Shown: positions 12,130-51,800, counted from the first letter of the stretch. The stretch: DNA of 64,000 nucleotides from an uncultured bacterium (GCA_963695095.1 CAVOFT010000001.1:3200001-3264000), one strand, 5' to 3'. Numbers and translations are program-made. Notes: generated by a model from the letters alone, not told the origin.

Positions 12130-12194
12130 GGAGGCCCGGGGACCTTCCCCTCGCGCGCGAAACAACGCGCGCTCGAGTAAGGTCCCGGGCCTCC
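12130..12194. repeat. Family-1 hairpin repeat (core CGCGCGCG-AAACAA-CGCGCGC), copy 1
   Basis: Arms GGAGGCCCGGGGACCTT / AAGGTCCCGGGCCTCC around the conserved core; starts 6 nt after the stop. Confidence 0.9.
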
Positions 12195-12290
12195 TCACCC
12201 ACACCAGCAGCACGCCTGCAACGCCCCAGCGGGCAGGCCCGCGGTACATCCCCGCGCGGGTCGCCCCTGCCCCGGCACGGCATGAACGGG

Positions 12291-12352
12291 CGCGGCCTGT
12301 TGCCTTCTCGAGCGCGCGTTGTTTCGCGCGCGAGGGGAGGCAACAGGCCGCG
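12291..12352. repeat. Family-1 hairpin repeat, copy 2 (inverted relative to copy 1)
   Basis: Arms CGCGGCCTGTTGCCT / AGGCAACAGGCCGCG around TCTCGAGCGCGCGTTGTTTCGCGCGCGAGGGG. Confidence 0.9.
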
Positions 12353-12373
12353 ACTTGTCCGCGTCGGGCCGGG

Positions 12374-15399: not shown

Positions 15400-15570
15400 G
15401 GCTTCCACTCCCGGGCTGGGGTTGCCCCGCGGCGGACGGCCAGTCCGGTCCGCAGGTTCGGCCGCCGATCAGAGTAGGACAAGCCTGTCCGGGAGGAAAG
15501 GACAATTTCAGGCAAGGGAAGCAGGATTACCCGGAATCGCCGCCGGGGCCGACCCGGCACGGCCCCAACA

Positions 15571-15636
15571 GACGCGGCCTGCTGTCTCCTCGAGCGCGCG
15601 TTGTTTCGCGCGCGAGGGGAGATGGCAGGCCGCGTC
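15571..15636. repeat. Family-1 hairpin repeat, copy 3
   Basis: Arms GACGCGGCCTGCTGTCTC / GAGATGGCAGGCCGCGTC around the same core; just downstream of the icd stop. Confidence 0.9.
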
Positions 15637-15658
15637 AATTGAGGGCGTGTCGGGTGAG

Positions 15659-16960
<1,302 letters not shown>

Positions 16961-17119
16961 CGACTGCTCCTGAGCGCTGGCGGTGATCGGGGAGCCCCGG
17001 GCGGGCCGCCCCAGGGGGCTAAGCGGACATTGGGATAATGATACTCGCTGGCGGCCCGGCTGCAAGGCACTAGGCCCTGGGCGCGCTTGGGCGCCGACTA
17101 TCGCAACTGCGGGTCGCCC

Positions 17120-18258: not shown

Positions 18259-18300
18259 GAAAAAAGGCCCCGGCGCGGATCCGGCGCCGAGGCTCATTTC
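18259..18300 (-). terminator. Probable intrinsic terminator of the C25 gene
   Basis: Minus strand GAGCCTCGGCGC...GCGCCGGGGCC followed by a T-tract. Confidence 0.55.
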
Positions 18301-18310
18301 GCAAGCGAGT

Positions 18311-18355
18311 TCGTGTCCAGGTCGCGCGCGTTGTTTCGCGCGCGGGAGGACGCGG
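18311..18355. repeat. Family-1 hairpin repeat, copy 4 (shorter, degenerate)
   Basis: CGCGCGCG-TTGTTT-CGCGCGCG core with CGTGTCC/GGACGCG arms, 8 nt from the stop. Confidence 0.8.
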
Positions 18356-18362
18356 CGGCGCG

Positions 18363-21300
18363 CTATTTGACGAGCAGCATCTTGCGCTGGATCCGCTCCG
18401 CGCCCACTTCCAACCGGTACAGGTAGACGCCCGTGGCGACCGCGGCGCCCGCGCTGTCGCGGCCGTCCCACTGCAGGTTATGCCAGCCCGCGGGGAACTC
18501 GCCTTCGGCAAGCGTGGTCACCTCGCGGCCGCTCACGTCGAAGATCGTGAGCCGGACGGCCGCGGGCGCCGGCAGACCGAAGCTGATCGCCGTCGTGGGA
18601 TTGAAGGGGTTCGGGTAGTTCTGGCCCAGCGCCAGCGCGGCGGGCGCCGCGTCGGCGGCGGTGCCGTCGCTGTTCACGATGAGCATCACCGGCACGAGCA
18701 GCGGTCCGGCGCTGGTGTTGATGGCCAGCGTGGTCTCATAGCTGCCGATGGCCAGGCCCGTCGCATCGAAGTGGAGCAGGATGCCGGCGCTGCCGCCCGC
18801 GGGCACGCTGCCCGTGCTGCCGATCGCGCCGAGCCAGCCGGGCAGGGGCGCGGTGTCCAGGGCGAAGTAGAGCAGCGAGCCCGCAGCGCCCGTGTTCTGC
18901 ACCTGCAGCGTGCGGTCGGTGCTGCCGCCGATCCACAGCGTCGTCTCCATGCTGGCCGGCAGGGCCGTGGCCTCGGCGATCAGCGCGTCGTTCAAGGGCA
19001 GGAAGCGGATGGCGCGGTTCGCCACCGGATTGCCGGCCGAGGCCGGGTGCTGGTTCCAGTAGCTGATCAGCAGGCCGTCCGTGCGGTCGCCGTTCATCAT
19101 GCCCACCGTGGCATAGCCGTTCTCGCTGTCGACGTTGTTCACCAGCTGGTACTGGAAGATGAACTCGCCGTCGCCGGTCGCCGTCGGGTAGAAGGCCGGA
19201 TCGAGCAGGATCAGCTCGAAGTTCTCCTGCGAGTTGCCCCAGTCGTTGCGCAGGCGGCTCCACTGCACGATGTAGCGGTGGTTGGCCGTGTCCGACAGGT
19301 AGTACACCAGGTCGCTGCCGCTCTGGTAGAGGTTGTCCCAGAAGGGCGCGATCATGTAGGGCGGCCCGCCCACGCCGGGAAGCGGGTAGTTGCGGAAGCC
19401 CACCAGGTAGGTCGAGCCCATCGCCACCCAGCCGTTGGAGCAGATCGAGATGTCGTCGAAGTCCTGCCCGAAGTAGCGGAAGGTGAAGGGCAGGGGCAGC
19501 GTGTTCGTGTCGTCCGAGCTGCCGAAGTCCGTGAGGCCGACGCTCGTGCCCGCGCCGCCGTAGTTGGGCGCGATCTCCACCCAGTTGTAGACGGGCGCCT
19601 GGGGATGGCTCGTGTCCGTGCTCTCGAAGGCGTAGTAGCCGTAGGCGCTGGGACCCGTGGGCGAGCCCAGGCTGGCGCTGCCTACCGTGAGCTGGAACTC
19701 CACCTCTTCGATCGCGCGCTCGTTGTAGCTGAGCAGCAGGCTGAAGCTGGCCAGATGGCCCGGGAAGGCGGCGCTGGACACGCTGAGGGTGAAAGGATCG
19801 CCGGCGTTGTTCCCGCCGGCGCCGAGGGCGAAGTCCGGGAAACTGCCGACAGGGTCGCCGACCGTCACCCAGGGACTGTGGCTGACGAGCGTGGCGCTCA
19901 CCCCGCTGGCGACGGCGCTGCCCGTGTTCTGCAGCGTCAGGCTGAGCGTGCCGCCCTCTCCGGGATCGAGGCCCGCGCCGCCGCTCCAGGCGAAGCTCTG
20001 ATAGTCGAGCGCGGCGCTCGCCACGTCGAGGCGGAGCAGAGAGGTCCAGGTCGACAGGCCGCTGGTGACGGTGACCACCAGATCGACGAGATGGCCGTTG
20101 GGCGCATCGGGCGCGAGGGCGAAGAGGAAGGGCGCATCGCCCCAGACCGTGCCGCCCGCGGGGATGTTCGCGAAGCCCTGCGTTGCTTCCAGGATGCTGA
20201 CATAGGGGTCCGTGCTGCCCAGCTTGGCGCTGACGTTCGTCGCCGCGTTGCTGCCGAGGTTCTCGAGCGCCAGGGCCAGCTCGATGCGCTCGCCGGGTCC
20301 GAGGCGGCCGTCGGCATTGCCGAGGCTCGCGCCCGCGGCGTCGTCGTCGAGCAGGTGATCCGCGAGGGTCGCGTACATCGCCTGCGGGGCGATGTTCATG
20401 CTGCCCAGGTGCGCGAAGAGATTGTGCCCCGACACCGTGACCAGCAGCGCGCCGGCGCTCAGGTTCGTGGGCAGCGGCAGCACGACCTGGCCCTGGCCAT
20501 CGGTGTAGCCCGTCTCGCTGAGAACGCCGCTGCGGTAGAGCGTGACGCGGGCGTCGGCGACGGCCTGGCCCGCGCTCCGCACGCTGACGGGAACGGCGTT
20601 GGCGCCGGGCGGCAGCGTCGGCGGATAGCTGACCGTGAGCGGGGCGGGGTAGCCCGTGTACATGTCGGTGGCCGGATCGCCCATCAAGTTGTTCCACACG
20701 GACCAGATCTCCACCCGGCTCGGCTCCGCGAGCTGATAGGTGCGATAGAGCTCGAGCTTGCCCCGCGTGTGCGCCACGCCGAGGCGGTGATCGCTGCCGT
20801 TGATGGCGCCGTCCCAGCAACCCTTGTAGTAGGTGTTGTTGTAGCGGGTGTGCGTGCCCCAGGTGGCCGTGCCGACCGCGCCGATGCCACCGCCGTTGGG
20901 CGCCTTCGTCCAGGCCTCGGAGATGGCCGTGGCGTCGCTCTTGAAGGAGCCGGTGCCGCAGGTCACCACCACGGCGAAGGGCAGCTCGCCCCCGTTGCTC
21001 AGGGCCTGGATGGCGCTGCTCGTCATGCCGCTCATGTTGAGGTAGCCGCGGTAGCCGAAGACGGTGAGGCCGGCGTTGGCCTGCTGCGTCATCTGGCTGG
21101 CGAAGTTGCCGCTCCAGATGGTGTCCACCTGCGTGTAGCCATGGTCGAGGAGCTGGGTCTTCACCCACTGGTTCACGTAGACCACGCCGATCCCCGACTG
21201 GCTGGGGTCGCCGCAGAGGCTGGCGCGGGTGAACCAGCCGCTGTCGGCCAGCGGCGGGTTGGTCTCGTAGTTGAGGATCTTGGCGACGATGATGTCCAGC

Positions 21301-22356
21301 TCGGTCGTGCTGCGATAGCTGAGGCGCCCGATGTGCACGTCGGCGAGGACGTCGCCGCCCGCCAGCGTGGTGTAGTAGTGGTCGCCTTCGCCGTTGTAGC
21401 CGCTGAGCGTCTCGTTCCAGGTGTTGACCAGATAGGTGCTCGAGGCGTCCCCGGCCAGGGTGACGAACTCCAGCGGCGGACTCACCGTATCGTAGATGTT
21501 CTGGATGTAGTTTTTGATGGCGCCGGTGGTCGTGCCCGTGGTCGGTGGTCGACACCGCGAGGACGTGGTAGCCCTGGCGCAGGCGCAGATCGATGAGCGG
21601 CTGCAGGCGCGTGAGCACGCCGGTGACGTTGGGATAGATGAGCAGATAGGTGCCGGGACCCACCGGCGGATCGCCGGCGCGGTAGAGCTCGCTCTGCTCG
21701 AGGTTCACGACGAGGTCGCGGTAGAGCCGGTCGAAGGACTCGGGGATCAAGGTCGGGCGCTCGGTCAGCGGCGCGGCGGGATCCGGCGTGAACTCGATCT
21801 CGATCTCGAGGCGCTCGGCCACGCGCAGCTCGCCGCTGGCGGGATCGTAGCCCACCGGCTGGAGCGTCAGCGGCACCAGGCGCAAGGCATTCATCGCGCC
21901 CGGCTCGCCGAGCTGGGCGCCGGGCGCCGTGGCCTCACCCGAGGCGTACCAGCTGCGATCAATGACGAAGCGATCGGCGCCGTCGGGCTGCACGGGCAGC
22001 ACGCGGAAGCCGGCGAAGCGCCGCTCGCTCGGCGTCACGGCGACCAGGCGCGCGCGCATGCCCGCGGGCAGCGCGATGAAGCGCGTGAAACTGGGCAGGC
22101 CGGCCCGGCCGTCCTCGCCCGCGATGGCGCCGTCGGCGAGGGTGAGGGCCTGGTAGGTGGCGCCCTCGATGCTGAAGTCCTCGACGGCGAGATTGACCAG
22201 CTCGCAGTCGAGCTTCAGCCTGTCGACGCCGGCCTCGCGCACCGTGAGCACGGGGGCCTGCGCCGCCGACGGCGCGCAGAGCTCCAGCGCGAGGGCCGCG
22301 GCGGGCAGGGTCAGGGAAGCGAGGGCGAACAGGAAGCAGGTAGCAGTTCTCCGCAT
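18363..22356 (-). CDS. Gingipain-like peptidase C25 family protein with propeptide, Ig domains and FlgD-Ig/T9SS-like CTD; frameshift near 21545
   Basis: The 5' ORF gives signal, propeptide and YLLIYP. The second frame gives FVTLAGD, DVHIGRLS, VVTCGTG, NLMGDPA and the CTD LGQNYPNPFNPTT...RKMLLVK. Confidence 0.88.
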
Positions 22357-22507
22357 GGGGATCCTCCGTGGCTGACGGATGCGCGGGGGCCAGGCTGCAG
22401 TGTCGATGGTGGAAGCGCTCCATTATACCCTATTCCTGGCAGTTTTGGATAGCCTCTGCTTGCAGGGACTTCCTCAGCGGGGTGGGGCTTTACCTGACCG
22501 CGCGGCC

Positions 22508-22516
22508 TGCTATACT
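22508..22516 (+). promoter_or_regulatory. Extended -10 promoter element
   Basis: TGCTATACT about 50 nt upstream of the acyl-CoA dehydrogenase start. Confidence 0.45.
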
Positions 22517-22562
22517 GGCCCCGCCCACTCCATCTGCACCCGACACCCAGGAAACGAGGTAG

Positions 22563-30857: not shown

Positions 30858-31330
30858 TGCGAGTCCTCCTTGAGGAACAGATGATGTCAAACCAAGGTGA
30901 AACGCACCCGAGTCAATCCAGAATCGGATCCCGAGAGCGAATCTCTCATGGCTCGGAGTCTAGCAGATGGGCGATTGTCATGTCTAGGTTACAGTTGTAA
31001 AGCCATGTAAATCAATCGGATCTGATCGATGGCCGAGGCAGGTCGGACGATGGGGCTCGCGTTTCGGCCGGGAAGCCGCCGCCCGCCAGGCCGGGGGCCA
31101 AGCGCTGACAACTAGGCTTGACGCATGGAAACAATCGGCGACAGCCCGTCCCGAGGCCCCGGCCGCGGCTCGACAGCGGTCCGCAATCGCTGCGTTTGCA
31201 ACAGGGTCGCCGGCCCGCTATTTTGGAGGCGGGCGGTTGCAATCCCGAGAACCCTGCGCTAGACTGCCCCGGTTTTCCGACTCCCCTCGCCCCACCAGCT
31301 GAGACCCTAGGGATGGCGGAGGTGCGCCCG

Positions 31331-32584
31331 ATGGCCGAATCCCGCATGCGGATAGCTATCCACAAGCAGGGGCAGGACTGCCAGGTCCGCGTCCGTGCCT
31401 TTTCCGGCAAGGAAGAGAAGCAGCTCCGGGCGAAGCTCAATCTTTGCCCCGCCGACGAGGCGCTGACGCGCATGGAGTCCTACGAGGATCTCCGTGCAGA
31501 CGAGTACTTCACGGTGAAGAGCGCCGGCGGCCCCGAGCTCTGCTTCGGCTGCCCGCCCGGACGCCTCGTGCGCCTGCGCGAGTTCCTCGACGAGACGCGT
31601 GGCGCCGCCGTGACCGACGGCGCCGAGCACGTGCCCAGCACCGAGGATGCGCGGCGTGCAGTCAGCCTCGAGGACAACTTCGCCGAAGAGCTCACGCACA
31701 TCATCGATTCCAATCTGCCCTTCTACAAGCGGGGCCCGGCGGCCTTCGCCAAGGGCGTGGGGATGCGCCTCGGCGTGCTGCTGCTGCTCGCCATCGTGGG
31801 GCGCGTCGTCTACCTCGGCCGCGCGGATCACTACGTCAGCCGCAGCCTGCAGAGCATCATGAAGACGGCGGAGACGCCCTATGCCGGCCAGAGCTATCTC
31901 TCCTACTTCTTCGAGCCCAACTACAGCCACCGCTCCAAGCTGATCATCAAGCGCCCCCTCTACATCCGCGGTAACCGGGTGATTCTCGAGGGCGGCTTCT
32001 ACGTGCAGATCGAGGGCATCGGCAACCTGAAGGCCTCCATCGAAGCCCACAACAACGAGCCCGTGACCCTGCGCGTGGACGCGCGGGAGGGCCGCATGCA
32101 GCTCGCCGGCATCTTCGTCGGCGGGGACCAGGTCGCCCCCAAGGGCGAGCTGCGTTACCAGGGCAAGGTGCCGGTGGCCGGCGCGGCGCCCAGCCGCGTC
32201 GACGCCCTCGACACCGACGCGCAGGGCGCCTACGTCCGCGTGCGCGACGCCGACCCCGAGGAGGACGGCACCTTCGGCTGGATGCTGGGACAGACGGTGA
32301 GCGTGACGGGGAACCTGACCAACGACGTCGACCGCTACCTGATCGGCACGGACGACTTCAAGTTCGCGATCGAGCGCAGCAGCGTGAAGCCGGAGATCCA
32401 GGAGATCCTCGACCTCGCCGCCGGCAGCAGCGAGCGCGCCATCGTCGACATGCGGCTCGCCAATCGGCCCTTCAATCTCATCGATCGGCGCAATCCGCGC
32501 GAGGGTCGGCGGGAGACGCGCATCATCTCGATGGGCACGGCCCACTACATCACCGTGCAGAGCGCGGTGCTGAAGAACATCTAG
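31331..32584 (+). CDS. Hypothetical single-pass membrane protein
   Basis: GGAGGT RBS; one TM (LGVLLLLAIVGRVVYL); strong GC3 bias; no recognised motif. Confidence 0.75.
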   Translation: MAESRMRIAIHKQGQDCQVRVRAFSGKEEKQLRAKLNLCPADEALTRMESYEDLRADEYFTVKSAGGPELCFGCPPGRLVRLREFLDETRGAAVTDGAEHVPSTEDARRAVSLEDNFAEELTHIIDSNLPFYKRGPAAFAKGVGMRLGVLLLLAIVGRVVYLGRADHYVSRSLQSIMKTAETPYAGQSYLSYFFEPNYSHRSKLIIKRPLYIRGNRVILEGGFYVQIEGIGNLKASIEAHNNEPVTLRVDAREGRMQLAGIFVGGDQVAPKGELRYQGKVPVAGAAPSRVDALDTDAQGAYVRVRDADPEEDGTFGWMLGQTVSVTGNLTNDVDRYLIGTDDFKFAIERSSVKPEIQEILDLAAGSSERAIVDMRLANRPFNLIDRRNPREGRRETRIISMGTAHYITVQSAVLKNI

Positions 32585-32590
32585 CGTGAA

Positions 32591-32654
32591 GCGGGCATGA
32601 GGGGCTCCCGCTCGCGCCGCTTCACAGGCGCTCGCAGAAGCCCCTCATGCCCGC
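32591..32654. repeat. Family-2 hairpin repeat (core GCGCC-TGTGAAGC-GGCGC), copy a
   Basis: Arms GCGGGCATGAGGGGCT / AGCCCCTCATGCCCGC; 7 nt after the stop. Confidence 0.9.
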
Positions 32655-32736
32655 CCCGCGCACGTTCCCCCATAGCACCGCGCTCTGCACGCATCCCTTG
32701 CGCTGGGGGCATTCACTTCGGCATGCTTTGCGGCGA

Positions 32737-32799
32737 GGCGTCTCTGGTTCTTCTGCGAGCGCCTGTGAAGCGGCGCGAGCGGGAGAAGCCAGAGACGCC
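32737..32799. repeat. Family-2 hairpin repeat, copy b (inverted relative to a)
   Basis: Arms GGCGTCTCTGG / CCAGAGACGCC around TCTGCGAGCGCCTGTGAAGCGGCGCGAGCGGGA. Confidence 0.9.
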
Positions 32800-32812
32800 C
32801 CGGAGGTCACGA

Positions 32813-33218
32813 ATGAGCGGACGCGAATGCCCCCAGCCTGAACATCCTGCTCCTGAGCGGCGACCGCGATCGGGCGCTCACCGCGCTCAACCTGGCTGCG
32901 GCCGCCCTGGCCCTGGGCAGGCCGACCGCGCTCTTCCTGACCTGGGAAGCGGTGGCGCGCTTCGCCGCGAACAGCCTCGACGAGGGGCCGCTGCCGGCCT
33001 TCGTCGCGGGGCCGGCAGCGGCCGCCCTGGCCGGGCAGCCGGGCATTGCCGAGAGCCTGGAGGCGCTGCGCAAGCGCGGGCTCAAGCTCTACGCCTGCGC
33101 GGGGACCCTGCAGCTGCTGGGGATCGATGCGAGCGCCCTCGCTCCGCGCGTCGATGCCGTCGCGGGCGCGGCCAGCTTCCTCGCCGAAGCCGCCGCGGGG
33201 CAGATCGTCAGCCTCTAG
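32813..33218 (+). CDS. DsrE/DsrF/DrsH-like family protein; apparent frameshift just after the start
   Basis: ATG 32813 with GGAGG RBS is out of frame with SLNILLLSGDRDRALTALNLAAAALALGRPTALFLTWEAV...LKLYACAGTL. Confidence 0.7.
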
Positions 33219-42112: not shown

Positions 42113-42140
42113 AAGGGGGGAGCCACCGGCTCCCCCCTTT
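42113..42140. terminator. Intrinsic terminator downstream of the peptidase cluster
   Basis: AAGGGGGGAGCC-ACC-GGCTCCCCCCTT. Confidence 0.7.
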
Positions 42141-42153: not shown

Positions 42154-42218
42154 AGAGCGCGTGCGTGTCGCAGCCGGGCGCCTGTGAAGCGGCGCCCGGT
42201 GCGACACGCGAGCGCTCT
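42154..42218. repeat. Family-2 hairpin repeat, copy c
   Basis: AGAGCGC..GCGTGTCGCA / TGCGACACGC.AGCGCTCT arms; overlaps the stop codon. Confidence 0.88.
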
Positions 42219-45180
42219 ATTTGAGCAGGACCATGCGCTTGCTCACCGTCTGCTCCGTCGTCACGAGACGATAGAAGTAGACGCCGCTCGCGGCGCGCTG
42301 GCCTGCGCTATCCGTGCCGTCCCAGACGATGCTCTGCGGACCGGCCTCGAGCTTGCCCTCCGCCAGGCTCTTCACCAGGCGACCCTGGGCATCGAAGATG
42401 CGCAGGCTGGCCTGGCCGGCCTGCTTCAGGCTGAAGCGGATCTCCGTCTTCGGGTTGAAGGGGTTGGGGCTGTTCTGGTCCAGGCGCGTGACGAAGTGCG
42501 TGCTCACGCCCTCGTCCACGCCCGAGAGATCGAAGCTGCCCATGAGCAGGAAGTCGTCCACCAGCGCCTCCACCAGGGAGCCGCTGCCGGCATCCTCCGC
42601 CTTGAAGCGCAACTGCACCGTGCCCGGGGTGGCGTAGTAGGTGTCCAGATCGAAGACGATGTTCACCCAGGCATTGCTGCTGGCCGTCGTGTACTCGACG
42701 TTGGTCCAGGTAGCGCCGCCGTCGTTGCTGACCTGCACGGTCCAGTAGTCCTCGCCGGGGGCGTTGCCCTGGTCGTTCGAGTACCAGCGCCAGTAGCTCA
42801 CGGAGACATCCGAAGCGCCAGCCAGCTCGAACTTCGGCGAGTAGAGCAAGGTCGCGCCGCCGTCGACGTCGTAGCTGCCGGCGCCGGTGCCTGCCAGCGC
42901 GCCGGTCACCCAGCACAGCGTGCCGATCGCCGTATGGTCGTTTTCAGGCTGGGCGGTCGTCTGCTGCGGATCCGCGCGCTCCCAGTTGCCGGTGCCGGCG
43001 GTCTCGCCGGTCACGGTGCTGAGATGCCAGGCGGTCGGCAGCTCCATCTCGTCCGCGAAGCCGTCGTCGACCTCGAAGTAGTGCAGGGCCGCCGGCGCCG
43101 CCGCCGGGCTGGTGCCCGTCGCACCCAGGGTGTTGGCCGCCTCGATGTAGTACTCGACCTTGCTGCCCCAGGCCTGCGCCGGGATCGTGGCCGCGAACTC
43201 GTCGGGGTTGCCGGTGCCGTTCATGAGCACGGTGCTGAAGCCGCCGCCGTTCACGCGATAGTTCAGCTCCACGCTGCCGCCCACGATGCTGCCGCCGCCC
43301 AGGGACACGGCCTGGCCGATCACGGGATAGCCCACGCTCTGGCTGGACGAGTAGGGACGGGACTCGTGGTAGACGAAGACGCCGACCAGGATCGCGGGAC
43401 AATCGAAGCCGTGGTTCTCGGCCGCCTCGCAGAGCTGCGCATGGTGCGGCGTGCCGTCGTCCATGTTGGCGTTGTCGTCATCGGCGAAGAAGGTGGCGAA
43501 CACCTGATCCGCCTGGTAGAAGGGGTGCATGAGCACGCGGCCGTAGTGCCAGAGCTCTCCGCTCTTGACCGTGCCGGGCGCATCCCAGCTGCCGCCGCCG
43601 TAGAGGCCCTGCAGCAGCACCATCGCGTCCCAGTTGAAGCCGGCGATCACCTGGCCGGCGTAGTGGATCTCCTGGCCCACCACGTCGCCCGGGTACTGCA
43701 AGGTGTTCAGCGAGTTGCGAATCCCGCTCACGCAGTTGCCCACGTAGAAGCCGCGGCCGATGATCGGATCCTGGGTCATCAGGTTGCCGATGATGTCGCC
43801 GTTGCCCTCGCCCAGGCCCTCGTTGCCCTGGCTGCCGAGAATGGCGGCCTGGATGCCGTGGCCGAACTCGTGGTGCACGACCTGCTGCAGCTCGCCGGTG
43901 TTGCCGTAGCTGGCGCTGCCGGCGCAGAAGTTGATGGTGCCGTCCCACCAGGCGTTGCCCGGGCAGTAGCCGTCCGAGCGGTTCACGTAGGCGTTGATGT
44001 GCGCGTTGCGTGTAGCCGAAGCCCGGCGTCGAAGAGATCGAAGAAGTCGTGGATGTCGTTGATGGCATCGAAGACGTCGCGCTCGTCCTGGCGGGCGTTC
44101 GCGTCCGTGAAGGCCACGGTGAAGGGCACGTTCTCCTGCGCCGTGCCGCGAGAACGCCGCCTCGGCGCCGTTGTAGTTGAACACCGTGATGTAGGGACCG
44201 ATCAGGCCGGCCGTCACCGTGCGGTTCCCGCCCGTGCCGGCGATCGACCAGCTGCCGTCGGCGAGGCTATTGGTGCTGCCCACGCCGCTCACGTTGATCG
44301 TGAGGTAGGGAATGTCGGTCATCGTCGAGCCGTCGCAGTAGCCGTAGATCTGGGCCTCCGCGGAGGTGTCGCCCCCATAGGCGAAGTCGATGTTGTTGAT
44401 CCGCTGCAGGATGTCGCCGCTGTGGGCGTCCACATCCGTCACCCACTCGCCGAAGGGCTCATAGGTCTTCACCGACAGGCGCCAGACGAGGTGGTACTCG
44501 ACCTCGGTCTCGCTGAGCGCCACGGGCAGCACGAGCAACCGCGGTTTCTCGGTGACGCTGTCCGTTGCCGGATCGAAGGGCAGGGCCTGGATGGCGATGG
44601 CCTCGGCCGCCGCCGCGCCGAGCGCGGGGGTTGTCGACAGGCCGCTGATCTGATGGTAGTCCGAACCCATCAGGAGCAGCTTGCCCGTGTCGCTGAAGGC
44701 CACGCGCACCTGCGCGCCCTCGACGTCCACGCCGGCATAGGTCTGCTGGAAGTGGGCCACCCACTTGCCCAGGGCGTGCGGGGTGGAGTCCAGGCGGAGC
44801 TGGCTGCCCTCCGCGCGCAGCACGTCGGCGTTGGCGGCGATGACCTGGCGGGCCAGGCTCTCCAGGCTCGCCGGGCCGCTGATGCCGCTCGCCATCGGCA
44901 CGCTGGTGCCGAAGACGTGCCGGGGCGTGTCGCTCAGGTTGTTCCAGGCGTAGACGCTCCAGCGACCCCCGTAGCGGGCCTCCAGGGTCTGGGCGGTCTC
45001 GAGCATGCCGACATCGCGGCCATAGCTCTGGGCGACGAGGGTGTTGAACGCCGGTAGCCGGATCTCATAGAGATCGTTCTGGCTGACCGGGGTGAAGGCC
45101 AAGGCGCTGACGGCCGCGAGCAAGAGACTTGCTGCGACGAGCAGGGCCCAGCCGGGGGTCCCGAAGATCCGAGATCTCAT
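42217..45180 (-). CDS. Secreted M4/M36-like zinc metallopeptidase (FTP/PepSY propeptide) with FlgD-Ig CTD, paralog 1; local compensated frameshifts about 44010-44150
   Basis: HFQQTYAGVDV, VDAHSGDIL, HHEFGHG, GLGEGNGD, QNSPNPFNPKT...KRMVLLK. Confidence 0.88.
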   Translation of the reverse strand: MRSRIFGTPGWALLVAASLLLAAVSALAFTPVSQNDLYEIRLPAFNTLVAQSYGRDVGMLETAQTLEARYGGRWSVYAWNNLSDTPRHVFGTSVPMASGISGPASLESLARQVIAANADVLRAEGSQLRLDSTPHALGKWVAHFQQTYAGVDVEGAQVRVAFSDTGKLLLMGSDYHQISGLSTTPALGAAAAEAIAIQALPFDPATDSVTEKPRLLVLPVALSETEVEYHLVWRLSVKTYEPFGEWVTDVDAHSGDILQRINNIDFAYGGDTSAEAQIYGYCDGSTMTDIPYLTINVSGVGSTNSLADGSWSIAGTGGNRTVTAGLIGPYITVFNYNGAEAAFSRHGAGERALHRGLHGRERPPGRARRLRCHQRHPRLLRSLRRRASATRNAHINAYVNRSDGYCPGNAWWDGTINFCAGSASYGNTGELQQVVHHEFGHGIQAAILGSQGNEGLGEGNGDIIGNLMTQDPIIGRGFYVGNCVSGIRNSLNTLQYPGDVVGQEIHYAGQVIAGFNWDAMVLLQGLYGGGSWDAPGTVKSGELWHYGRVLMHPFYQADQVFATFFADDDNANMDDGTPHHAQLCEAAENHGFDCPAILVGVFVYHESRPYSSSQSVGYPVIGQAVSLGGGSIVGGSVELNYRVNGGGFSTVLMNGTGNPDEFAATIPAQAWGSKVEYYIEAANTLGATGTSPAAAPAALHYFEVDDGFADEMELPTAWHLSTVTGETAGTGNWERADPQQTTAQPENDHTAIGTLCWVTGALAGTGAGSYDVDGGATLLYSPKFELAGASDVSVSYWRWYSNDQGNAPGEDYWTVQVSNDGGATWTNVEYTTASSNAWVNIVFDLDTYYATPGTVQLRFKAEDAGSGSLVEALVDDFLLMGSFDLSGVDEGVSTHFVTRLDQNSPNPFNPKTEIRFSLKQAGQASLRIFDAQGRLVKSLAEGKLEAGPQSIVWDGTDSAGQRAASGVYFYRLVTTEQTVSKRMVLLK

Positions 45181-45447
45181 GGGTTGCACTCCTTCGCTGA
45201 GTTGCCGTCTAGACGGTGGGCGTCGAAGGCAGGCGAAAACCTGACCTGCGTTGTGGGGCACGAGAAGGCGGGAAGCACTTCATTATAGCATACTTGGAAT
45301 GCAGCCGACAAAGAGGCAAAGCAACGCCCACGCGGGAAACTCGAGCCCACCCGCCCCCGGGGGCGGCCTCAGGTCGCGGGATGGGGCCTGCTACCGCATC
45401 GTAGAGCTGCGGCGGGCCGCTCGCGAGGCGCTTGTTCCCAAGCGGAA

Positions 45448-45512
45448 AGCCGCTGCGCGGGTCGTGGCCGGGCGCCTGTGAAGCGGCGCCAGGCACGACC
45501 CGCGCGGCGGCT
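45448..45512. repeat. Family-2 hairpin repeat, copy d
   Basis: AGCCGCTGCGCGGGTCGTG / CACGACCCGCGCGGCGGCT arms; overlaps the stop codon. Confidence 0.9.
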
Positions 45513-48432
45513 ACTTGATCAGAAGCATGCGCTTCGCCTGCGTCCCCGCGGCCGTCTCCAGGCGGTAAAGGTAGACGCCGCTGGCCACTGCGCGGCCCTC
45601 GCCGTCCCGCCCGTCCCAGCTCACGCTGCCCGGCCCGGCCGGCTGCTCGCCCGCGAAGAGCACCCTGAGCAGGCGGCCCCGGGCATCGTAGACCGCCAGA
45701 CGCGCCCGCCCGGCGCTGGGCAGGCTGTACTTGATCTCCGTCACCGGATTGAAGGGATTGGGCCGGTTCTGCTCGAGCCGCTGCGGGAAGGCGATCTCCA
45801 GGCCGTCGCCCACGCCGGTCAGGTCCTCGAAGCTGGCGAGGATGGCGATGTCGTCCACGGCCGCCTCCACCTCGTTCACGGCGCCGAAGTCCTCGGCCGT
45901 GATCTTCAGGCGCAGCAGCTCCAGCGCGGGGAAGTGGGCGCTGAGATCGTGAATCACGTTCTCCCAGCCCGGAGTGCCGCTGGGATCGTGCTCCACGCGC
46001 AGCCAGGTGGCGCCGCCGTCGTTGGAGAGCCAGAGATCGAACTCGTCGTTCGTGCTGTCGGTGACGAACCACTTCCAGTAGCGCAGCGAGGCGCTGGTCG
46101 CGCCCGTGAGATCGTAGACCGGCGAGAGCAGCGTGGTGCGGCCGTTGTCGACGTCGTTCGTCTGGCCGGTCACCCAGCAGAGCGTGCCCGCCGGCGTGTG
46201 GTCGTCCTCGGGCTGGATGTTGGTGCCGATGGGATCCACGTGCACCCAGGCGCTGCTGGCCGCGGCGGCATCGGTGCCGTCGGGGTCCACGGTCCAGCCG
46301 TCGGCGGACTCGAGCGGATCGATGAGCCAGGCCACCACGAAGCTGTGGAAGGCCGCCGGCGCATCGTCCGGCTCGCTGCCCGGCGTGCCCAGCTCGTCGG
46401 CGGCGCTCAGGTAGTAGTCGACCTGGGCCGCTTCCTGGGCCGGAATGCTCGCGCTGTAACTGTTGCCGCCCGCCGGCGCCATCGTCAGCTCGGTCCAGGT
46501 GCCGCCGTCCACGCGCCAGGTAAGTGTCACCGACGCAGGATTGATGGGTGCGTAGGTGGAGATGACCTCGGCCGTCACCGCATAGTCGTTCTCCGCGTCC
46601 GTCGTGTCCCCCACCGGGGTATGCGTGAAGAGCACGCCGATCAAGCGCTCGGGGCACTCGAAGCCGTGGTTCTCGGCCGCGGCGCAGAAGCTGTCGAAGT
46701 GCGGCGTGCCGTCGTCCATGTTGTCGTTGTCGTCATCAGCGAAGAAGGTGGCGAAGACCTGATCGGGCTGCGTGGTCGGCAGCAGAAGCAGGCGCCCGAA
46801 GTGCCAGCGCTCGGCCGAAGCGATGGTGCCGGGGCTGTCCCAGGCGGCGCCGCCGCCGAGTTCGGCCTGCAGCAGCACCATGGCGTCCCAGTTGAAGCCG
46901 GCGATCACACGGCCGGCGGCGTGGATCTCCACGCCCAGCACGTCGGCCGGGTACTGCAGGGTGTTCAGCGAATTGCGGATGCCGCTCACGCAGTTGCCCG
47001 CGAAGAAGCCGCGGCCGATCACCGGATCCTGGGTGATCAGGTTGCCGAGGATGTCCCCGTTGCCCTCGCCCAGGCCCTGATCGCCCTGGTAGCCGAGAAT
47101 CGCCGCCTGCACGCCGTGGCCGAACTCGTGGTGCACCACCTGCTGCAGCTCGCCGGTGTTGGCGTAGCCGGCGCCGGCGGCGCAGAAGTTGATGGTGCCG
47201 TCCCACCAGGCGTTGCCAGGACAGTAGCCGTCGGTGCGATTCACGTAGGCGTTCATGCGCACGTTCGGATAGGCGAAGCCGGGGTCGAAGAGCGCGAAGA
47301 AGTCGTGGACGTCGTTCACGGCGTCGAAGGTGTCGCGCTCGTCCTGGCGCGCATTCGAGTCGTCGAAGCGCACGGTGAAGGGCAGGTCCTCCATGGCCAG
47401 GCCGCTGAAGGCGGCCTCGTCGCCGTTCTGATTGTAGACGCGCACCCAGGGGCCGAAGAGATCGGAAGTCACCGTGCGCGCGCCGCCGCTGCCCGCCACG
47501 CTCCAGTCGCCGGCCGCGTTGCTCGTCGTGCTCCCGGCGCCGTCGACGCTGATGCGCAGGTAGGGCATGGGCACATCGCTCGGCCCGTCGCACCAGCCGT
47601 AGACCTGGGTGTCGGCCGCAGTGTCGCCGCCGTAGGCGAAGTGGATGTCGTTCGTTCGCTGCAGGATCTCGCCCGTGTGGGCGTCGACGTCCGTCACCCA
47701 GGCGCCCAGGGGCTGCGCGGTGCGCAGGGTCAGCCGCCAGACGAGGTGGTACTCCACCGCGGTGTCGCTGAGTGCCACGGGCAGCACGAGCAGGCGCGGC
47801 TGGGCGCTGACGCTGTCCGTCGTCGGGTCGAAGGGCAGGGCCGCCTTGGCGATGGCCTCCGCCGCCGCCGCGCCGAGGGCCGGCGTCGGCGAGAGCGCAA
47901 TGTCCGCATGGTAGTCCGAACCCATCAGGAGCAGCTTGCCCGTGTCGCTGATCGCCACGCGCACGCGGGCGCCCTCGACGTCGATGCCCTGCCAGGTCTG
48001 CTGGAAGTGGGCCACCCACTTGCCCAGCGCATGCGGCGTGGCGGCGAGGCGGAGCTGCGCGTTGTCCGCGCGGAGCAGCTCCGCGTTGGTCGCGATCACC
48101 TGGCGCGCGAGGCTCTCCAGCGCCGCCGCGTCGTCGACGCTCGCCGCCAGCTGCACGCTGCTGCCGTAGACATGCCGCGGCGTTCCGCTCAGGTTGTTCC
48201 AGGCGTAGACGCTCCAGCGGCCGCCGTAACGGGTCTCGAGCGCCCGCGCGGTCTCGAGGATGCCGACGTCGCGTCCGTAGCTCTGCCCGCCCAGGGTGTC
48301 GTACTCGGGCAAGCGGATCTCGTAGAGCGCGTTCTGATCCGCGGGCGTGAAGGCGCCGGCCGGCGCGAGGAAGGTGGCGAGCAGCAGGCCGAGAATGCCC
48401 AGCGCGGCTGCGAACTTCAGGATGCCCGTCAT
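45511..48432 (-). CDS. Secreted M4/M36-like zinc metallopeptidase with FlgD-Ig CTD, paralog 2
   Basis: HHEFGHG, GLGEGNGD, QNRPNPFNPVT...KRMLLIK. Confidence 0.9.
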   Translation of the reverse strand: MTGILKFAAALGILGLLLATFLAPAGAFTPADQNALYEIRLPEYDTLGGQSYGRDVGILETARALETRYGGRWSVYAWNNLSGTPRHVYGSSVQLAASVDDAAALESLARQVIATNAELLRADNAQLRLAATPHALGKWVAHFQQTWQGIDVEGARVRVAISDTGKLLLMGSDYHADIALSPTPALGAAAAEAIAKAALPFDPTTDSVSAQPRLLVLPVALSDTAVEYHLVWRLTLRTAQPLGAWVTDVDAHTGEILQRTNDIHFAYGGDTAADTQVYGWCDGPSDVPMPYLRISVDGAGSTTSNAAGDWSVAGSGGARTVTSDLFGPWVRVYNQNGDEAAFSGLAMEDLPFTVRFDDSNARQDERDTFDAVNDVHDFFALFDPGFAYPNVRMNAYVNRTDGYCPGNAWWDGTINFCAAGAGYANTGELQQVVHHEFGHGVQAAILGYQGDQGLGEGNGDILGNLITQDPVIGRGFFAGNCVSGIRNSLNTLQYPADVLGVEIHAAGRVIAGFNWDAMVLLQAELGGGAAWDSPGTIASAERWHFGRLLLLPTTQPDQVFATFFADDDNDNMDDGTPHFDSFCAAAENHGFECPERLIGVLFTHTPVGDTTDAENDYAVTAEVISTYAPINPASVTLTWRVDGGTWTELTMAPAGGNSYSASIPAQEAAQVDYYLSAADELGTPGSEPDDAPAAFHSFVVAWLIDPLESADGWTVDPDGTDAAAASSAWVHVDPIGTNIQPEDDHTPAGTLCWVTGQTNDVDNGRTTLLSPVYDLTGATSASLRYWKWFVTDSTNDEFDLWLSNDGGATWLRVEHDPSGTPGWENVIHDLSAHFPALELLRLKITAEDFGAVNEVEAAVDDIAILASFEDLTGVGDGLEIAFPQRLEQNRPNPFNPVTEIKYSLPSAGRARLAVYDARGRLLRVLFAGEQPAGPGSVSWDGRDGEGRAVASGVYLYRLETAAGTQAKRMLLIK

Positions 48433-48535
48433 GCGATCACTCCCTTGGATGAATGCGCGCGCCGACGATCAGCGCGCGTCGATGCCAAGAACCGAGCCGC
48501 CGGGGCGCAGGCGAGGCGCCGGCTCCTCGGCGGGG

Positions 48536-48600
48536 AGCCGCTGCAGGGGTCGTGGCCGGGCGCCTGTGAAGCGGCGCCAGGCACGACCCCTGCAGCGGCT
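48536..48600. repeat. Family-2 hairpin repeat, copy e
   Basis: AGCCGCTGCAGGGGTCGTG / CACGACCCCTGCAGCGGCT arms; overlaps the stop codon. Confidence 0.9.
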
Positions 48601-51523
48601 ACTTGATGAGCAGCATGCGCTTCGCCTGCGCCCCCGCGGCCGTCTCCAGGCGGCAGAAGTAGACGCCGCTGGCCACCGGGCGGCCGGCGCCGTCCCGCCC
48701 GTCCCACTGCAGCCGGTGCTGGCCCGCGGCGTAATCGCCCGCGGCCAGCTCGCGCAGGCGGCGGCCCTGGGCATCGAGCACTTCCACGCGCACCCGGCCG
48801 GCAGTGGCCAGGCTGAAGCGGATCTCGGTGACCGGGTTGAAAGGATTGGGCACGTTCTGCTCGAGCAGCGTGGGCAGCCCGATCTCGAAGTCCTCGCCGA
48901 CGCCGGTGGTCTCCCAGATGGCGAGCAGCGTGACATCGTCCAGGCCGCCTTCGACCAGATGGTCCGCGTCGATGTCGTAGACCTCCCAGCGGAAGGCCAT
49001 CTGATCGGGGACGGGGAACAGGCCCAGCATGTTCACCGTGAAGGGCACCCAGGCGTTGGACGGCGTGCCGCTGAACTCCATCGTGTACCAGGTGCTGCCG
49101 CCATCGTTGGAGGTCTTCGTCTTCCAGTAGTCCGTGCTGCCCGCGGCGCCCTGGTCGTTGGAGAACCACTTCCAGTAACGCAGGGTGACCGTCGAGGCGC
49201 CGCTCAGGTCGTAGACCGGGCTGGTCAGCGTGACCCAGCCGCCATCCACGTCGTCGGCGTCCACCGGCTGGCCGGCCGTGTGCTGGCCGGTGATCCAGCA
49301 GGAGTTGCCCAGCAGCGAGTGGTCGTGCTCGGGCTGCGCGATCGTGCCCACGGGATCCACCCGCGTCCAGCCGCCGGCGGGATCGGCGCCGCCGGAGATG
49401 GCCGTCGTCCAGCCCGCGCCCGACTCGCCATCCGCGAGCCGCCAGGCCACCATGAAGTCATGGGGCCCGGCCGGGCCGGTGCGCGGCTCCATCGCCGAGG
49501 CGCCGGTGATGTCCTCGGCGCTGAGGTAGTACTCGACGATCCCGGGCTGCTGCGCGGGCATCAGGCCCTGGTAGGAGTCGCCGAGGCCGGTGGGCAGCAT
49601 CGCCGCGCTCTGCCAGGCCTCGCCCACGCGACGCCAGTAGAGCCGCACGCCGTCGGCGGCGATGAGCCCGTTGCTGGAGGTCGCGATGGCCGTCACCGCA
49701 ATCGGGTTGGGAGAGGTCTCGCGGTCCGGCAAGGGCGTGTGGCCGATCGCCACGCCCGTCTCGATGAGGTCGCAGGCAAAGCCGTGATTCAGCGCGGCGG
49801 CGCAGTAGGCGAAGTAGTCCGGGGTGCCGTTGGCGAGGTCGCCGTCGTCGTCATCGGCGAGGAAGGTGGCGAAGGCCTGATCGGGTTGCAGGGTCGGGTG
49901 CATGAGGACGCGGCCGTAGTGCCAGGTGCCGGCCGCCCGCAGGGTGCCCTCGGCCACACCGTGGACCTCCTGGAGCACGACCATGGCATCCCAGTGGAAG
50001 CCTGCGATCACCCGCCCCGCGTTGTGGATCTCCTGGCCGACGACATGATCCGGGTAGACCAGGTTGTTGTCCGAGTTGCGGATGCCCGTCGCGCAACTGC
50101 TCGTGTAGAAGCCGCGGCCGATGATCGACTCCTGCGTGATCATGTTCGCGAGCACGTCCCCGTTGCCCTCGCCCAGGCCCTCGTTGCCCTGCCAGCCGAG
50201 AATGGCCGCCTGCACGCCGTGGCCGTACTCGTGCTGCACGACGCCCTGGATCTCGCCCGTGTTGGCGTAGTTGCCCGAGGCGGCGCAGAAGTTGATGCTG
50301 CCGTTCCACCAGGCGTTGCCCGGGCAGTAGCCGTCCGTGCGGCTGACGTAGCCGTTGATGCTGCCGTTCGCATACGCGAACTCGGGCGCGAAGCTCTGGA
50401 AGAAGAGGTGGATGTCGTTCACCGCATCGAAGACGTCCCGCTCGTCGGCCTGGGAGTTGGCATCCGTGAAGGCCACCGTGAGCGGCGCGCCGTCGGCCAC
50501 CGAGCCGCTGAAGAAGGCCTCGGCGCCGCCGAGATTGTCGGCGACGTGGATGTAGGGACCCTGCAGGTCGCAGCTCGCGGTGCGGGGCAGGCCGCTGCCG
50601 GCGATGCTCCAGTCGCCCGCGGCGTCGCTCGTCGTGCTGCCCAGCCCGCTGACGTCGACGCTGAGGTAGGGCATGGGCGCGATCACCTCGCCGTCGCACC
50701 AGGTGACGGGCTGGGTGCCGCTGGCCGTGTCGCCGCCGTAGGCGAAGTGGATGTCGTTGTAGCGCCACAGCAGCCGGCCGTCCCGAGCGTCCACATGCGT
50801 GACCCAGAGGCCCAGCGGGTCCTCCGTGCGCAGGCTGAGCCGCCAGGCCAGGCGCAGATCGGCGCCGCCCGCCGCGCGAGGCAGGGGCAGCACCATCAGC
50901 TCGGGCGCGCCCTCGAGCACGGAGGCCGCCGGCAGGGCGGCGGCCGCGATGGCCAGGGCCTCGGTCGCAGCGAGCGCGGGCGTCGGATCGAGCGCGATGT
51001 CGCTGAAGAGGTCCGAGCTCGCGAACATCAGGCGGCCGTCGTCGGCAAAGCCGAGCCGCGCCCGGGCCTCCCAGATCTCGAGTCCCTGCCAGGTCTGCTG
51101 GAAGTGGGCCACCCACTTGCCGCGGGCGTGGGGCGCCGCACTGAGGACGAGGCCCTCCAGGTCGCCGGGGAAGAGCTCGGGCAGCGCGGCCATGGCCTGC
51201 CGTGCGAGGCGCTCGAGGCCGGCGGCGTCGCCGGGCGCCTCGCCGAGGGCAAAGCTCGGCCCGTGCACGAGGTGCGCGCTGCCCGACACGCGGTTCCAGG
51301 CGCTGACGCGCCAGGGCAGGCCCAGGCGGGCCTGCAGGCGCTGCTCGGTTTCGCGGGCGGCGATCTCCGTGGCGTAGTCGCCGGTCAGCATGGCCTCGCC
51401 GAGGCCGAGCGGGATCTCGAGCGCCTGCTGCGGAACGGGCTGGAAGGCGAAGGCCAGGGTCGGCAGGGCGAGGAGACAGCAAGCAATGCGCAGCACGAGC
51501 GCGCGGGGGGCGGCCAGGGTCAT
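48599..51523 (-). CDS. Secreted M4/M36-like zinc metallopeptidase with FlgD-Ig CTD, paralog 3
   Basis: QHEYGHG, GLGEGNGD, QNVPNPFNPVT...KRMLLIK. Confidence 0.9.
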   Translation of the reverse strand: MTLAAPRALVLRIACCLLALPTLAFAFQPVPQQALEIPLGLGEAMLTGDYATEIAARETEQRLQARLGLPWRVSAWNRVSGSAHLVHGPSFALGEAPGDAAGLERLARQAMAALPELFPGDLEGLVLSAAPHARGKWVAHFQQTWQGLEIWEARARLGFADDGRLMFASSDLFSDIALDPTPALAATEALAIAAAALPAASVLEGAPELMVLPLPRAAGGADLRLAWRLSLRTEDPLGLWVTHVDARDGRLLWRYNDIHFAYGGDTASGTQPVTWCDGEVIAPMPYLSVDVSGLGSTTSDAAGDWSIAGSGLPRTASCDLQGPYIHVADNLGGAEAFFSGSVADGAPLTVAFTDANSQADERDVFDAVNDIHLFFQSFAPEFAYANGSINGYVSRTDGYCPGNAWWNGSINFCAASGNYANTGEIQGVVQHEYGHGVQAAILGWQGNEGLGEGNGDVLANMITQESIIGRGFYTSSCATGIRNSDNNLVYPDHVVGQEIHNAGRVIAGFHWDAMVVLQEVHGVAEGTLRAAGTWHYGRVLMHPTLQPDQAFATFLADDDDGDLANGTPDYFAYCAAALNHGFACDLIETGVAIGHTPLPDRETSPNPIAVTAIATSSNGLIAADGVRLYWRRVGEAWQSAAMLPTGLGDSYQGLMPAQQPGIVEYYLSAEDITGASAMEPRTGPAGPHDFMVAWRLADGESGAGWTTAISGGADPAGGWTRVDPVGTIAQPEHDHSLLGNSCWITGQHTAGQPVDADDVDGGWVTLTSPVYDLSGASTVTLRYWKWFSNDQGAAGSTDYWKTKTSNDGGSTWYTMEFSGTPSNAWVPFTVNMLGLFPVPDQMAFRWEVYDIDADHLVEGGLDDVTLLAIWETTGVGEDFEIGLPTLLEQNVPNPFNPVTEIRFSLATAGRVRVEVLDAQGRRLRELAAGDYAAGQHRLQWDGRDGAGRPVASGVYFCRLETAAGAQAKRMLLIK

Positions 51524-51736
51524 GGGGATCGTCCTTCCTGGAGCGAGAAGCGGCGGGCGGCGAGCGTTGCGGCCGGCGGCAGCGGGGAAGGCCGGGCCAG
51601 CAAGCGATCATCATTGTAACCCAGGAGCGCCCATGCTGGCCACGCCGGAATGTCCGCCGGCATTCAGGATCCGGATTCTCGCAACTCTCGCGGCGAGTGA
51701 GGCCACGCCCGCGGGCCTCGCGACGCTGGGCGGGTG

Positions 51737-51800
51737 GCGCCGCTGAGACCCTTCTGCGAGCGCCTGTGCAGCGGCGCGAGCGGGAGGGTCTCAGCGGCGC
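51737..51800. repeat. Family-2 hairpin repeat, copy f
   Basis: GCGCCGCTGAGACCCT / AGGGTCTCAGCGGCGC arms around TCTGCGAGCGCCTGTGCAGCGGCGCGAGCGGG. Confidence 0.9.

Follow-up and report, generated by a model that had tools for sequence, protein, structure and literature searches.

What are the ten hairpins that stand at gene ends in a 64,000-nt stretch of bacterial chromosome (~70% G+C) from an uncultured bacterium (GCA_963695095.1, CAVOFT010000001.1:3200001-3264000), and do they act as RNA or as DNA? This stretch was analysed at its full length and is referred to as the window; positions are counted from its first letter. A first-pass annotation had taken the hairpins for a structure-selected, REP-like element, acting in 3' untranslated regions of mRNA or serving as single-stranded DNA substrate of an enzyme. 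The reading favoured here, and put forward tentatively, is that of a lineage-specific family of gene-end palindromes under selection, resembling REP and TRIT (tuberculosis Rho-independent terminator) hairpins, in which the DNA hairpin drives template switching. The family would act like REP or TRIT and appears to belong to neither. Beyond what had been annotated, the conserved part is the tip and not the entire hairpin, and the palindromes reach into coding sequence.

Ten copies and their place at gene ends

Exactly the ten copies that had been claimed were recovered by fuzzy tip-motif searches of the whole window, with no further F1 or F2 tip match within a hairpin; their near-constant length was likewise borne out (65, 62, 66, 61, 64, 64, 65, 63, 63, and 64 nt for c1-c10, respectively). 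The unit has a stem of ~28 bp, tipped by either of two apical stem-loops; some copies also carry a frame of tandem G-A and G-T pairs. Module F1, apical sequence GCGCGCGTTGTTTCGCGCGC, is matched exactly at four places in the window (tips at 12153 on the minus strand, 12312, 15594, and 18324); module F2, apical sequence GCGCCTGTGAAGCGGCGC, is matched exactly at five places and with one substitution at a sixth (tips at 32614 on the minus strand, 32759, 42178, 45472, 48560, and 51760). The strand given below for each copy is the one that bears the G-T/G-A form.

c1, 12130..12194, minus strand: F1 tip with GA frame; -54.5 kcal/mol, z -7.7; foot 5 nt past the TAG of the plus-strand gene 11027..12124 (M28 peptidase with FlgD_ig C-terminus).
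c2, 12291..12352, plus strand: F1 tip with GA frame; z -9.8; foot 21 nt past the TGA of the minus-strand gene 12374..~13950; weaker pairing continues to 12268-12375.
c3, 15571..15636, plus strand: F1 tip with GA frame; z -10.5; foot 22 nt past the TAG of the minus-strand isocitrate dehydrogenase gene 15659..17065; imperfect palindrome 15552-15655.
c4, 18305..18365, plus strand: F1 tip only, frame degenerate, stem weak; z -2.7; overlaps the TAG of the minus-strand gene 18363..21485 (C25 peptidase with FlgD_ig).
c5, 32591..32654, minus strand: F2 tip with GA frame; z -9.5; foot 6 nt past the TAG of the plus-strand gene 31118..32584.
c6, 32737..32800, plus strand: F2 tip with GA frame; z -8.3; inverted partner of c5, 109 nt apart; ends just ahead of GGAGG 32802-32806 and ATG 32813, upstream of a DsrE-like open reading frame (ORF).
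c7, 42154..42218, plus strand: F2 tip only; z -8.4; 2-nt overlap with the TAG of the minus-strand gene 42217..45261 (protease paralog with FlgD_ig).
c8, 45449..45511, plus strand: F2 tip only; z -7.9; 1-nt overlap with the TAG of the minus-strand gene 45511..48432.
c9, 48537..48599, plus strand: F2 tip only; z -8.1; 1-nt overlap with the TAG of the minus-strand gene 48599..51523.
c10, 51737..51800, plus strand: F2 tip with GA frame, one loop substitution; z -8.2; foot 7 nt past the TGA of the minus-strand gene 51808..52458.

The GA frame said to be common to both families is matched six times in the window and never in 100 shuffles; it is present in c1-c3, c5, c6, and c10, and the other four copies (c4, c7-c9) carry the tip only. 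In the framed copies a tandem G-A mismatch is accompanied by two G-T wobbles, c1 and c3 having variants of this arrangement; c8 and c9 have a bulged G plus a G-A. As had been described, the outer stems differ in sequence among copies and stay paired. Cores of 32 and 36 nt are 100% identical across distant sites (repeat finding), and such identical 32-36-nt cores lie behind unrelated genes, namely those for isocitrate dehydrogenase, the M28 peptidase, and an oxidoreductase. Two inverted doublets are present, 109 and 129 nt apart. Copies c2 and c3, behind unrelated genes, are homologous over ~85 nt and differ by further compensated and wobble changes (by reading of alignments). In terms of kinship, c7-c9 are paralogous, c2 and c3 related, and c5 and c10 probably related. 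Two MAFFT alignments, one of all ten copies and one of the six that are F2-type, did not keep the structural register and were excluded from the counts.

A chance pattern or an assembly artefact is counted as already refuted. Several genes of the window look frameshifted, so that the assembly may carry indel errors, but ten copies with exact shared cores of 18-36 nt were found where none are expected in shuffles, their z values fall as low as -10.5, their placement is consistent, and changes among the paralog copies are compensated.

The proximity to stop codons that had been described was confirmed, the foot lying at +5, +21, +22, -1, +6, -2, -1, -1, and +7 nt in c1-c5 and c7-c10, respectively; c6 is the exception, ending 12 nt ahead of an ATG and not behind a stop. 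Random intergenic placement within 22 nt of a stop has p = 0.133 per copy, giving P(at least 9 of 10) = 1.2e-7; with related copies collapsed to 5 of 6 near a stop, P = 2.2e-4. The coding boundary is on the 3' side of the G-T strand in all ten copies. On that strand, TTG occurs within 7 nt past the gene-side foot in seven of ten copies (background 0.0077 per position; e.g., 12353-12359, 15637-15643, 42219-42225), in four of which it corresponds to the gene's Lys and stop codons read in reverse, and a short T-containing run (e.g., ATTTGA, ACTTGA, AATTGA) follows the hairpin, also in seven of ten copies. Two ideas on placement were dropped: a constant stop-to-core distance, as of a ribosome footprint (distances 12-38 nt), and TAG as the target, this stop being used by 7 of 9 genes with the element and 17 of 37 others (p = 0.14). 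Among the 46 predicted genes of the window, TAG ends 24, TGA 20, and TAA 2; such a share of TAG is high for a 70% G+C genome.

As a separate observation on the genes concerned, those encoding a C-terminal FlgD_ig domain are enriched for the hairpin (5 of 6 vs. 4 of 40 other genes; Fisher p = 0.0005, with paralogs collapsed p = 0.01).

Tip, stem, and folding strand

Selection on the structure, as first proposed, finds its clearest expression in c7, c8, and c9, which sit behind three tandem paralogous protease genes. In their gapless alignment 96.4% of cells are paired, and 10 of 28 pairs have changed on both sides, a number of two-sided changes reached by none of 500 shuffles and set against at most 2 in slid controls. 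Identity among the three copies is 61-87% in the outer arms, which diverge about as fast as the coding sequence next to them (63-82%); it is 46-53% in the distal flanks and 96-100% in the apical 26 nt. Since the apical 26 nt are nearly identical while the paired outer arms diverge, the tip is constrained in sequence and the stem in pairing only; the fixed tip is presumably read by a protein, and the lower 15-20 bp of the stem may be free in sequence provided that they pair. The series thus amounts to a natural experiment on three layers: a frozen tip, a free-but-paired stem, and decaying flanks.

The genes in question (42217-51523, minus strand; ~1000 aa each) encode FTP / M36-like peptidases with a FlgD_ig C-terminus; F2-type hairpins c10, c9, c8, and c7 bracket each of them, and promoter-like sites are found at 45311-45282 and 51642-51613. 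The shared F2 hairpins could have mediated the tandem duplication of these genes.

On the G-T strand, nine of ten copies fold at z = -7.7 to -10.5, with none of 200 shuffles as good, the degenerate c4 at z = -2.7. An 80-nt sliding fold of the plus strand gave a window mean of -31.0 kcal/mol (sd 7.0) and -52.7 to -66.4 kcal/mol over the nine copies; c4 fell short of the listing threshold of -42 kcal/mol. In the six framed copies the G-T wobbles and the tandem GA/GA mismatch are indeed confined to one strand. When flanked as in C-GA-G, tandem G-A forms a sheared motif that is stable. The G-T strand folds more stably than the other in nine of ten copies. Within 30 positions of the loop, the pairs other than Watson-Crick comprise 21 G-T vs. 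1 A-C and 18 G-A vs. 0 C-T (in the flanking zone 41:37 and 41:24, respectively), counts that mostly reflect the inherited frame, with ~4-7 G-T vs. 0-1 A-C outside it (by eye). Newly arisen pairs of this kind likewise favour the antisense strand, and the strand asymmetry is real though modest. The single polarity claimed earlier holds in nine of nine copies; as a correction, however, it is the mismatched form that the mRNA carries, the G-T/G-A form being on the gene's antisense strand. A purely mRNA-level role in the 3' untranslated region, one of the two originally offered, therefore fits badly, as the asymmetry favours the strand antisense to the mRNA.

The lack of U-tracts was reproduced: in a hairpin-plus-T-tract scan none of the ten copies was called on either strand, with six clear sites called elsewhere within 12000-51999. 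Of the two separate terminator-like hairpins reported further downstream, the first is canonical on the gene's strand; the second is not, its T-run being on the plus strand instead.

18267..18293, minus strand: intrinsic terminator downstream of c4 and outside the repeat; 10-bp stem followed by CTTTTTT.
42113..42139, no strand assigned: separate 12-bp hairpin downstream of c7; TTTGCTT on the plus strand, only TTCATGTT on the gene's strand.

Behind c8 and c10, in the spacers scanned, no other terminator-like site was called ahead of the next gene's promoter-like site. A C-rich Rho-loading region behind the hairpins was considered and dropped, the C/G ratio being inconsistent (0.71-1.82), and insertion into pre-existing terminator loops was rejected, no T-tract following the outer stems. 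Two other hairpins with 12-13-bp stems lie between convergent gene pairs; that at 35698-35727 has an A-run on one side and a T-run on the other, making it a bidirectional terminator, and that at 57448-57477 has no T-tract.

These results bear on a purely RNA-level, TRIT-like signal, in which a tip-reading factor would end transcription or define or protect the 3' end, no enzyme acting on single-stranded DNA would be involved, and copies would have spread solely through gene duplication and gene conversion. The foot at the stop in nine of ten copies and in one polarity agrees with it, as do the conserved tip with covarying stems, the evident movement of c7-c9 along with their genes, and the want of anything else terminator-like, despite the missing U-tract, before the promoter-like sites behind c8 and c10; the authors of the TRIT study proposed, in the part of the text available, a factor binding the conserved double-stranded motif (PMC3152330). 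We nonetheless hold this account to be unlikely, though worth keeping in view: the strand that tolerates wobbles and G-A pairs is the antisense one and not that of the mRNA, identical 32-36-nt cores behind unrelated genes require some means of spread to new loci, c6 precedes a start codon, and a canonical terminator comes after c4.

An action of the antisense strand itself, as a polar block to transcription entering gene ends backwards or as an attC-like bottom-strand recombination site, seems very improbable. The folded and better-conserved strand is antisense to the gene, and the short T-containing run follows the hairpin in seven of ten copies, but these runs have only 2-3 T, in four copies are the gene's Lys and stop codons, and give no call on either strand in the terminator scan. 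attC sites of integrons, too, come after stop codons with a fixed polarity, and it is their bottom strand that folds; their base is conserved and their tip variable, the opposite of the hairpins studied here. With the attC core consensus (R'' RYYYAAC, R' GTTRRRY), R''/R' cores were found within 25 nt of none of the ten copies; there is no integrase or cassette array in the window, and the genes concerned are large, housekeeping or paralogous, and on both strands.

Inverted copies of gene ends

Symmetry past the hairpin was scored by alignment of each flank with the reverse complement of its partner, with 1398 random centres as the null. It exceeds the 95th percentile of the null in nine of ten copies, four of them above all nulls, and c7 lies below; among ordinary terminator-like hairpins, 1 of 12 exceeds that percentile and the rest are at background. 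Extended palindromes (no strand assigned) and their matching patches are as follows.

12078..12241, of c1: score 17.5, above all 1398 random centres; 12205-12214 inverts coding 12109-12118 (10/10), 12229-12241 inverts 12078-12090 (13/13).
32554..32691, of c5: score 18.0, above all nulls; 32674-32691 is an 18/18 inverted copy of coding 32554-32571 (conserved C-terminus).
32702..32837, of c6: score 13.5, reached by 0.07% of nulls; 32702-32714 and 32825-32837 are an inverted pair (13/13).
45414..45546, of c8: score 9.5, reached by 2.4% of nulls; extends 35 nt into coding sequence, 71% complementary.
48496..48640, of c9: score 20.5, above all nulls; 81% over 64-nt arms; distal 48496-48519 mirrors coding 48617-48640 (22/24 by eye).
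51689..51848, of c10: score 16.0, above all nulls; distal 51689-51709 mirrors coding 51828-51848 (18/21 by eye).

In the protein whose gene provides the c5 patch, the last nine residues are shared, fully or almost so, by every one of the 26 homologs found, including those with as little as 44% identity. Because this C-terminus is kept in all 26, the coding arm is ancestral and the distal arm a derived inverted copy. The coding arms of c1, c4, and c7-c9 are part of a shared C-terminal domain. One derived substitution is common to the distal arms of c8 and c9 (by eye), which suggests that the inverted copy predates the gene duplication. A larger conserved element supplying the gene's C-terminus was rejected, the extended arms being locus-specific and the coding arm ancestral.

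The c6 palindrome overlaps the start of the DsrE-like gene, as the C5 run 32830-32834 lies inside its 13/13 patch. In that ORF (32802-33218, plus strand, frame of 32817) residue 46 is the earliest point at which an in-frame ATG, GTG, or TTG could serve as the start, and the GGAGG and ATG at 32813 are in another frame. Within it, a 38-nt hairpin (32986-33023; perfect 14-bp stem, 10-nt loop) bears no relation to the repeat family, and its flanks show no extended symmetry.

Could the palindromes be neutral by-products that persist and grow by arm-to-arm template switching, with no selection? According to the available parts of several reports (PMC13100816, PMC8604942, PMC3820800, PMC7202029), imperfect inverted repeats have their arms homogenised and expanded when templates are switched between them, and the mostly perfect Watson-Crick outer stems and the patchy extension of the palindromes into the flanks look like its products. 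As a full account it is nevertheless highly unlikely: the unpaired 8-nt loop and the tip remain 96-100% identical while the arms drift to 61%, G-A and G-T mismatches stay uncorrected in six copies, and position at the stop codon and polarity are left without account.

In the reading that we favour, selection and template switching would act together. The antisense strand would be the folding strand under selection and, when single-stranded, would be the substrate of an enzyme specific to the hairpin, by which the unit is copied or moved in the manner of RAYT and REP. Copies would persist only just behind stops and with the polarity by which the weaker, mismatched hairpin falls to the mRNA, and this mRNA-borne hairpin would end or protect the transcript 3' end. 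The stable DNA hairpin would bring its flanks side by side, so that a polymerase switching templates could copy constrained patches of the coding arm onto the free distal arm; such copying would keep the stem perfect and lengthen the palindrome. The enzyme, the means of spread, and the copying mechanism are what we infer from the arrangement of the copies.

Several points weigh against this reading. No enzyme for the hairpin was found among 183 ORF translations, drawn from a 64-kb window of a ~3.6 Mb contig: Pfam gave no Y1_Tnp, HUH, other transposase, integrase, or reverse transcriptase, and hence none of the RAYT/TnpA(Y1) genes flanked by hairpins that had been suggested. A REP-type GTAG foot is not conserved, the feet differing among copies; the only GTAGs, those of c8 and c9, are made up of a Lys codon and the TAG stop. 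Target-site duplications are absent at the feet, a direct repeat of at least 3 nt being present in one of ten copies (a trivial CGG). Between the hairpin and each matching patch lie 11-28 nt of unmatched sequence, a gap that holds the stop codon (in c6, the start region); template switching can give rise to such a gapped pattern. The stop-to-core distance ranges from 12 to 38 nt, the reading gives no account of the near-constant length of the perfect stem, and a TAG-targeting mechanism is neither supported nor excluded, the difference from other genes not being significant. The asymmetry count, as said, is mostly that of the frame; the ten copies come from one 64-kb window and represent about six independent events; and the role at the mRNA 3' end is one that we purely infer.

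Other searches were also negative. Rfam gave no family at the gathering threshold for the hairpins and, at E up to 5, only sub-threshold matches resembling miRNA precursors. The framed core was absent from 185,579 species genomes apart from chance matches (56 loci in unrelated sequence, one with a tandem pair, none with an F1 or F2 tip or hairpin context), tip-only copies being outside the search pattern. For plasmids, blastn with the c5-c6 and c1-c2 spacers gave nothing relevant (one irrelevant 63-nt Streptomyces match), and a literature text search with four 12-nt loop words gave no relevant context, the papers being unrelated by title.

A selfish palindrome mobilised as single-stranded DNA by a RAYT, an IS200/IS605-like, or an unknown enzyme, without host function, would owe its position at stop codons to target choice and to the loss of harmful insertions. 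An imperfect hairpin with conserved mismatches and loop, the strand asymmetry, two subfamilies in one genome, and the inverted doublets 109 and 129 nt apart are what such an element might show, and TTG near the gene-side foot in seven of ten copies could be its cleavage or target motif. We consider it improbable all the same: the window has neither an enzyme nor GTAG; its copies are placed non-randomly, whereas REPINs are randomly distributed in extragenic space in the available part of their description (PMC3116915); and c7-c9 have kept tip and pairing through 13-39% outer-arm divergence, which suggests host-level selection rather than decay.

A stronger version of the favoured reading, which we regard as doubtful, is that the hairpins are a new class: strand-specific DNA hairpins on the template strand, with a tip-reading enzyme, in which copying by fold-back or template switching builds 3' intergenic DNA. 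If so, small palindromic repeats would furnish the 3' regions of bacterial genes with inverted copies of the genes' own ends, and apparent covariation would in part be a product of the copying mechanism and not of RNA selection.

The inverted coding-end copies (nine of ten hairpins vs. 1 of 12 terminators) point to template switching, seeded by hairpins, as one origin of intergenic DNA, and caution that perfect 'covarying' stems need not imply selection at the RNA level.

Gene setting and likeness to known systems

The window contains housekeeping genes and several secreted peptidases with a FlgD_ig-type C-terminal domain. The nearest named relative of its isocitrate dehydrogenase (82% identity) is from a metagenome-assembled genome labelled Candidatus Latescibacteria; a homolog of a second protein (56% identity) is labelled Candidatus Krumholzibacteriota. 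Protein homologs of 96%, 92%, and 91% identity also exist. Three genes appear split: the M28 peptidase (10810-12180 / 11027-12124), with N- and C-parts in different frames; 18363-22356, with Propeptide_C25 and Peptidase_C25 in different frames; and the acyl-CoA dehydrogenase 22379-23800, with its N-domain frame differing from that of the C-domain. They are either true frameshifts or assembly indel errors. Two adjacent tandem duplicates of unknown function (29189-29875 and 30168-30890, minus strand; 78-81% DNA identity) are each followed by an ordinary T-tract terminator. A molybdenum-cofactor riboswitch (54111-54235, minus strand; Rfam RF01055, 56.5 bits, gathering 36) is found immediately upstream of the gene 53121..54167, which is radical-SAM and MoaA-like.

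REP elements affect mRNA decay and, reportedly (Liang, Rudd and Deutscher), translation near stop codons. The REP-like character first claimed stands in the broad sense of a repeated, imperfect hairpin at gene 3' ends; the REP/REPIN features of a GTAG foot and random spread do not. With REP, BIME, and REPIN elements the family has in common short repeated imperfect palindromes, extragenic and near gene ends, in several sequence groups per genome with occasional inverted doublets. TnpA-REP, an HUH enzyme, binds an imperfect single-stranded DNA hairpin and requires its mismatch, and a conserved tetranucleotide (GTAG in E. coli) forms the 5' foot of the REP hairpin, both as given in the available text of PMC3479197. 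An imperfect hairpin with conserved mismatches was found here too (tandem G-A and two G-T, six copies), without the 5' GTAG foot, without a RAYT in the window, and in units about twice as long (61-66 nt). REPINs, in the portion of PMC3116915 available, comprise two conserved inverted REPs around a less conserved spacer, are spread at random over extragenic space, and keep pairing in their variable part through compensatory changes. So described, they are conserved in the REPs on the outside and variable in the spacer within, whereas the tip is conserved and the base variable in the present hairpins, which are, moreover, tied to stop codons in one polarity. Nor do REP and REPIN elements match the longer palindrome with an inverted coding-end copy around nine of ten copies.

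With integron attC sites the hairpins share imperfect palindromes behind stops, fixed polarity, an antisense fold, and variable sequence with conserved structure; they differ in that core sites are absent (0 of 10), that neither an integrase nor a cassette array is present in the window, and that conservation is distributed the other way round between tip and base. From MITEs they differ in that their termini are the variable part, with no conserved terminal inverted repeats and no target-site duplication. Perfect unique stems and patches of symmetry running into the flanks recall quasipalindrome template-switch mutagenesis, which is, however, a mutational process and not an element family, and leaves conserved tip, mismatches, and stop position unaccounted for. 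Canonical intrinsic terminators are likewise GC-rich hairpins downstream of genes; the stems here are 2-3 times longer, the tip sequence is common to copies, and there is no U-tract, whereas the window's ordinary terminators, of which one comes directly after c4, combine a T-tract with a stem of 9-13 bp.

TRIT was compared by description and not by its sequence. According to the available part of PMC3152330, TRIT hairpins are reported only in Mycobacterium, are conserved in sequence, and occupy a very narrow range at the stop codon. Measured against that portion of the account, the likeness comprises a high-GC genome, a palindromic hairpin at gene termini that is conserved in sequence and structure, is narrowly placed at the stop codon and overlaps it, little weight on a U-tract, and restriction to a single lineage. 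As described there, TRITs are mostly bidirectional, whereas the copies of the window have a polarity, their loop being asymmetric and mismatches present; that part of the report describes neither a lower stem of variable sequence nor inverted coding-end copies. Alongside TRIT, the family provides another and independent instance of hairpins with conserved sequence that are tied to stop codons in a high-GC genome, the second so far and here of an uncultivated lineage, and suggests a recurrent, still unexplained marking of gene 3' ends.

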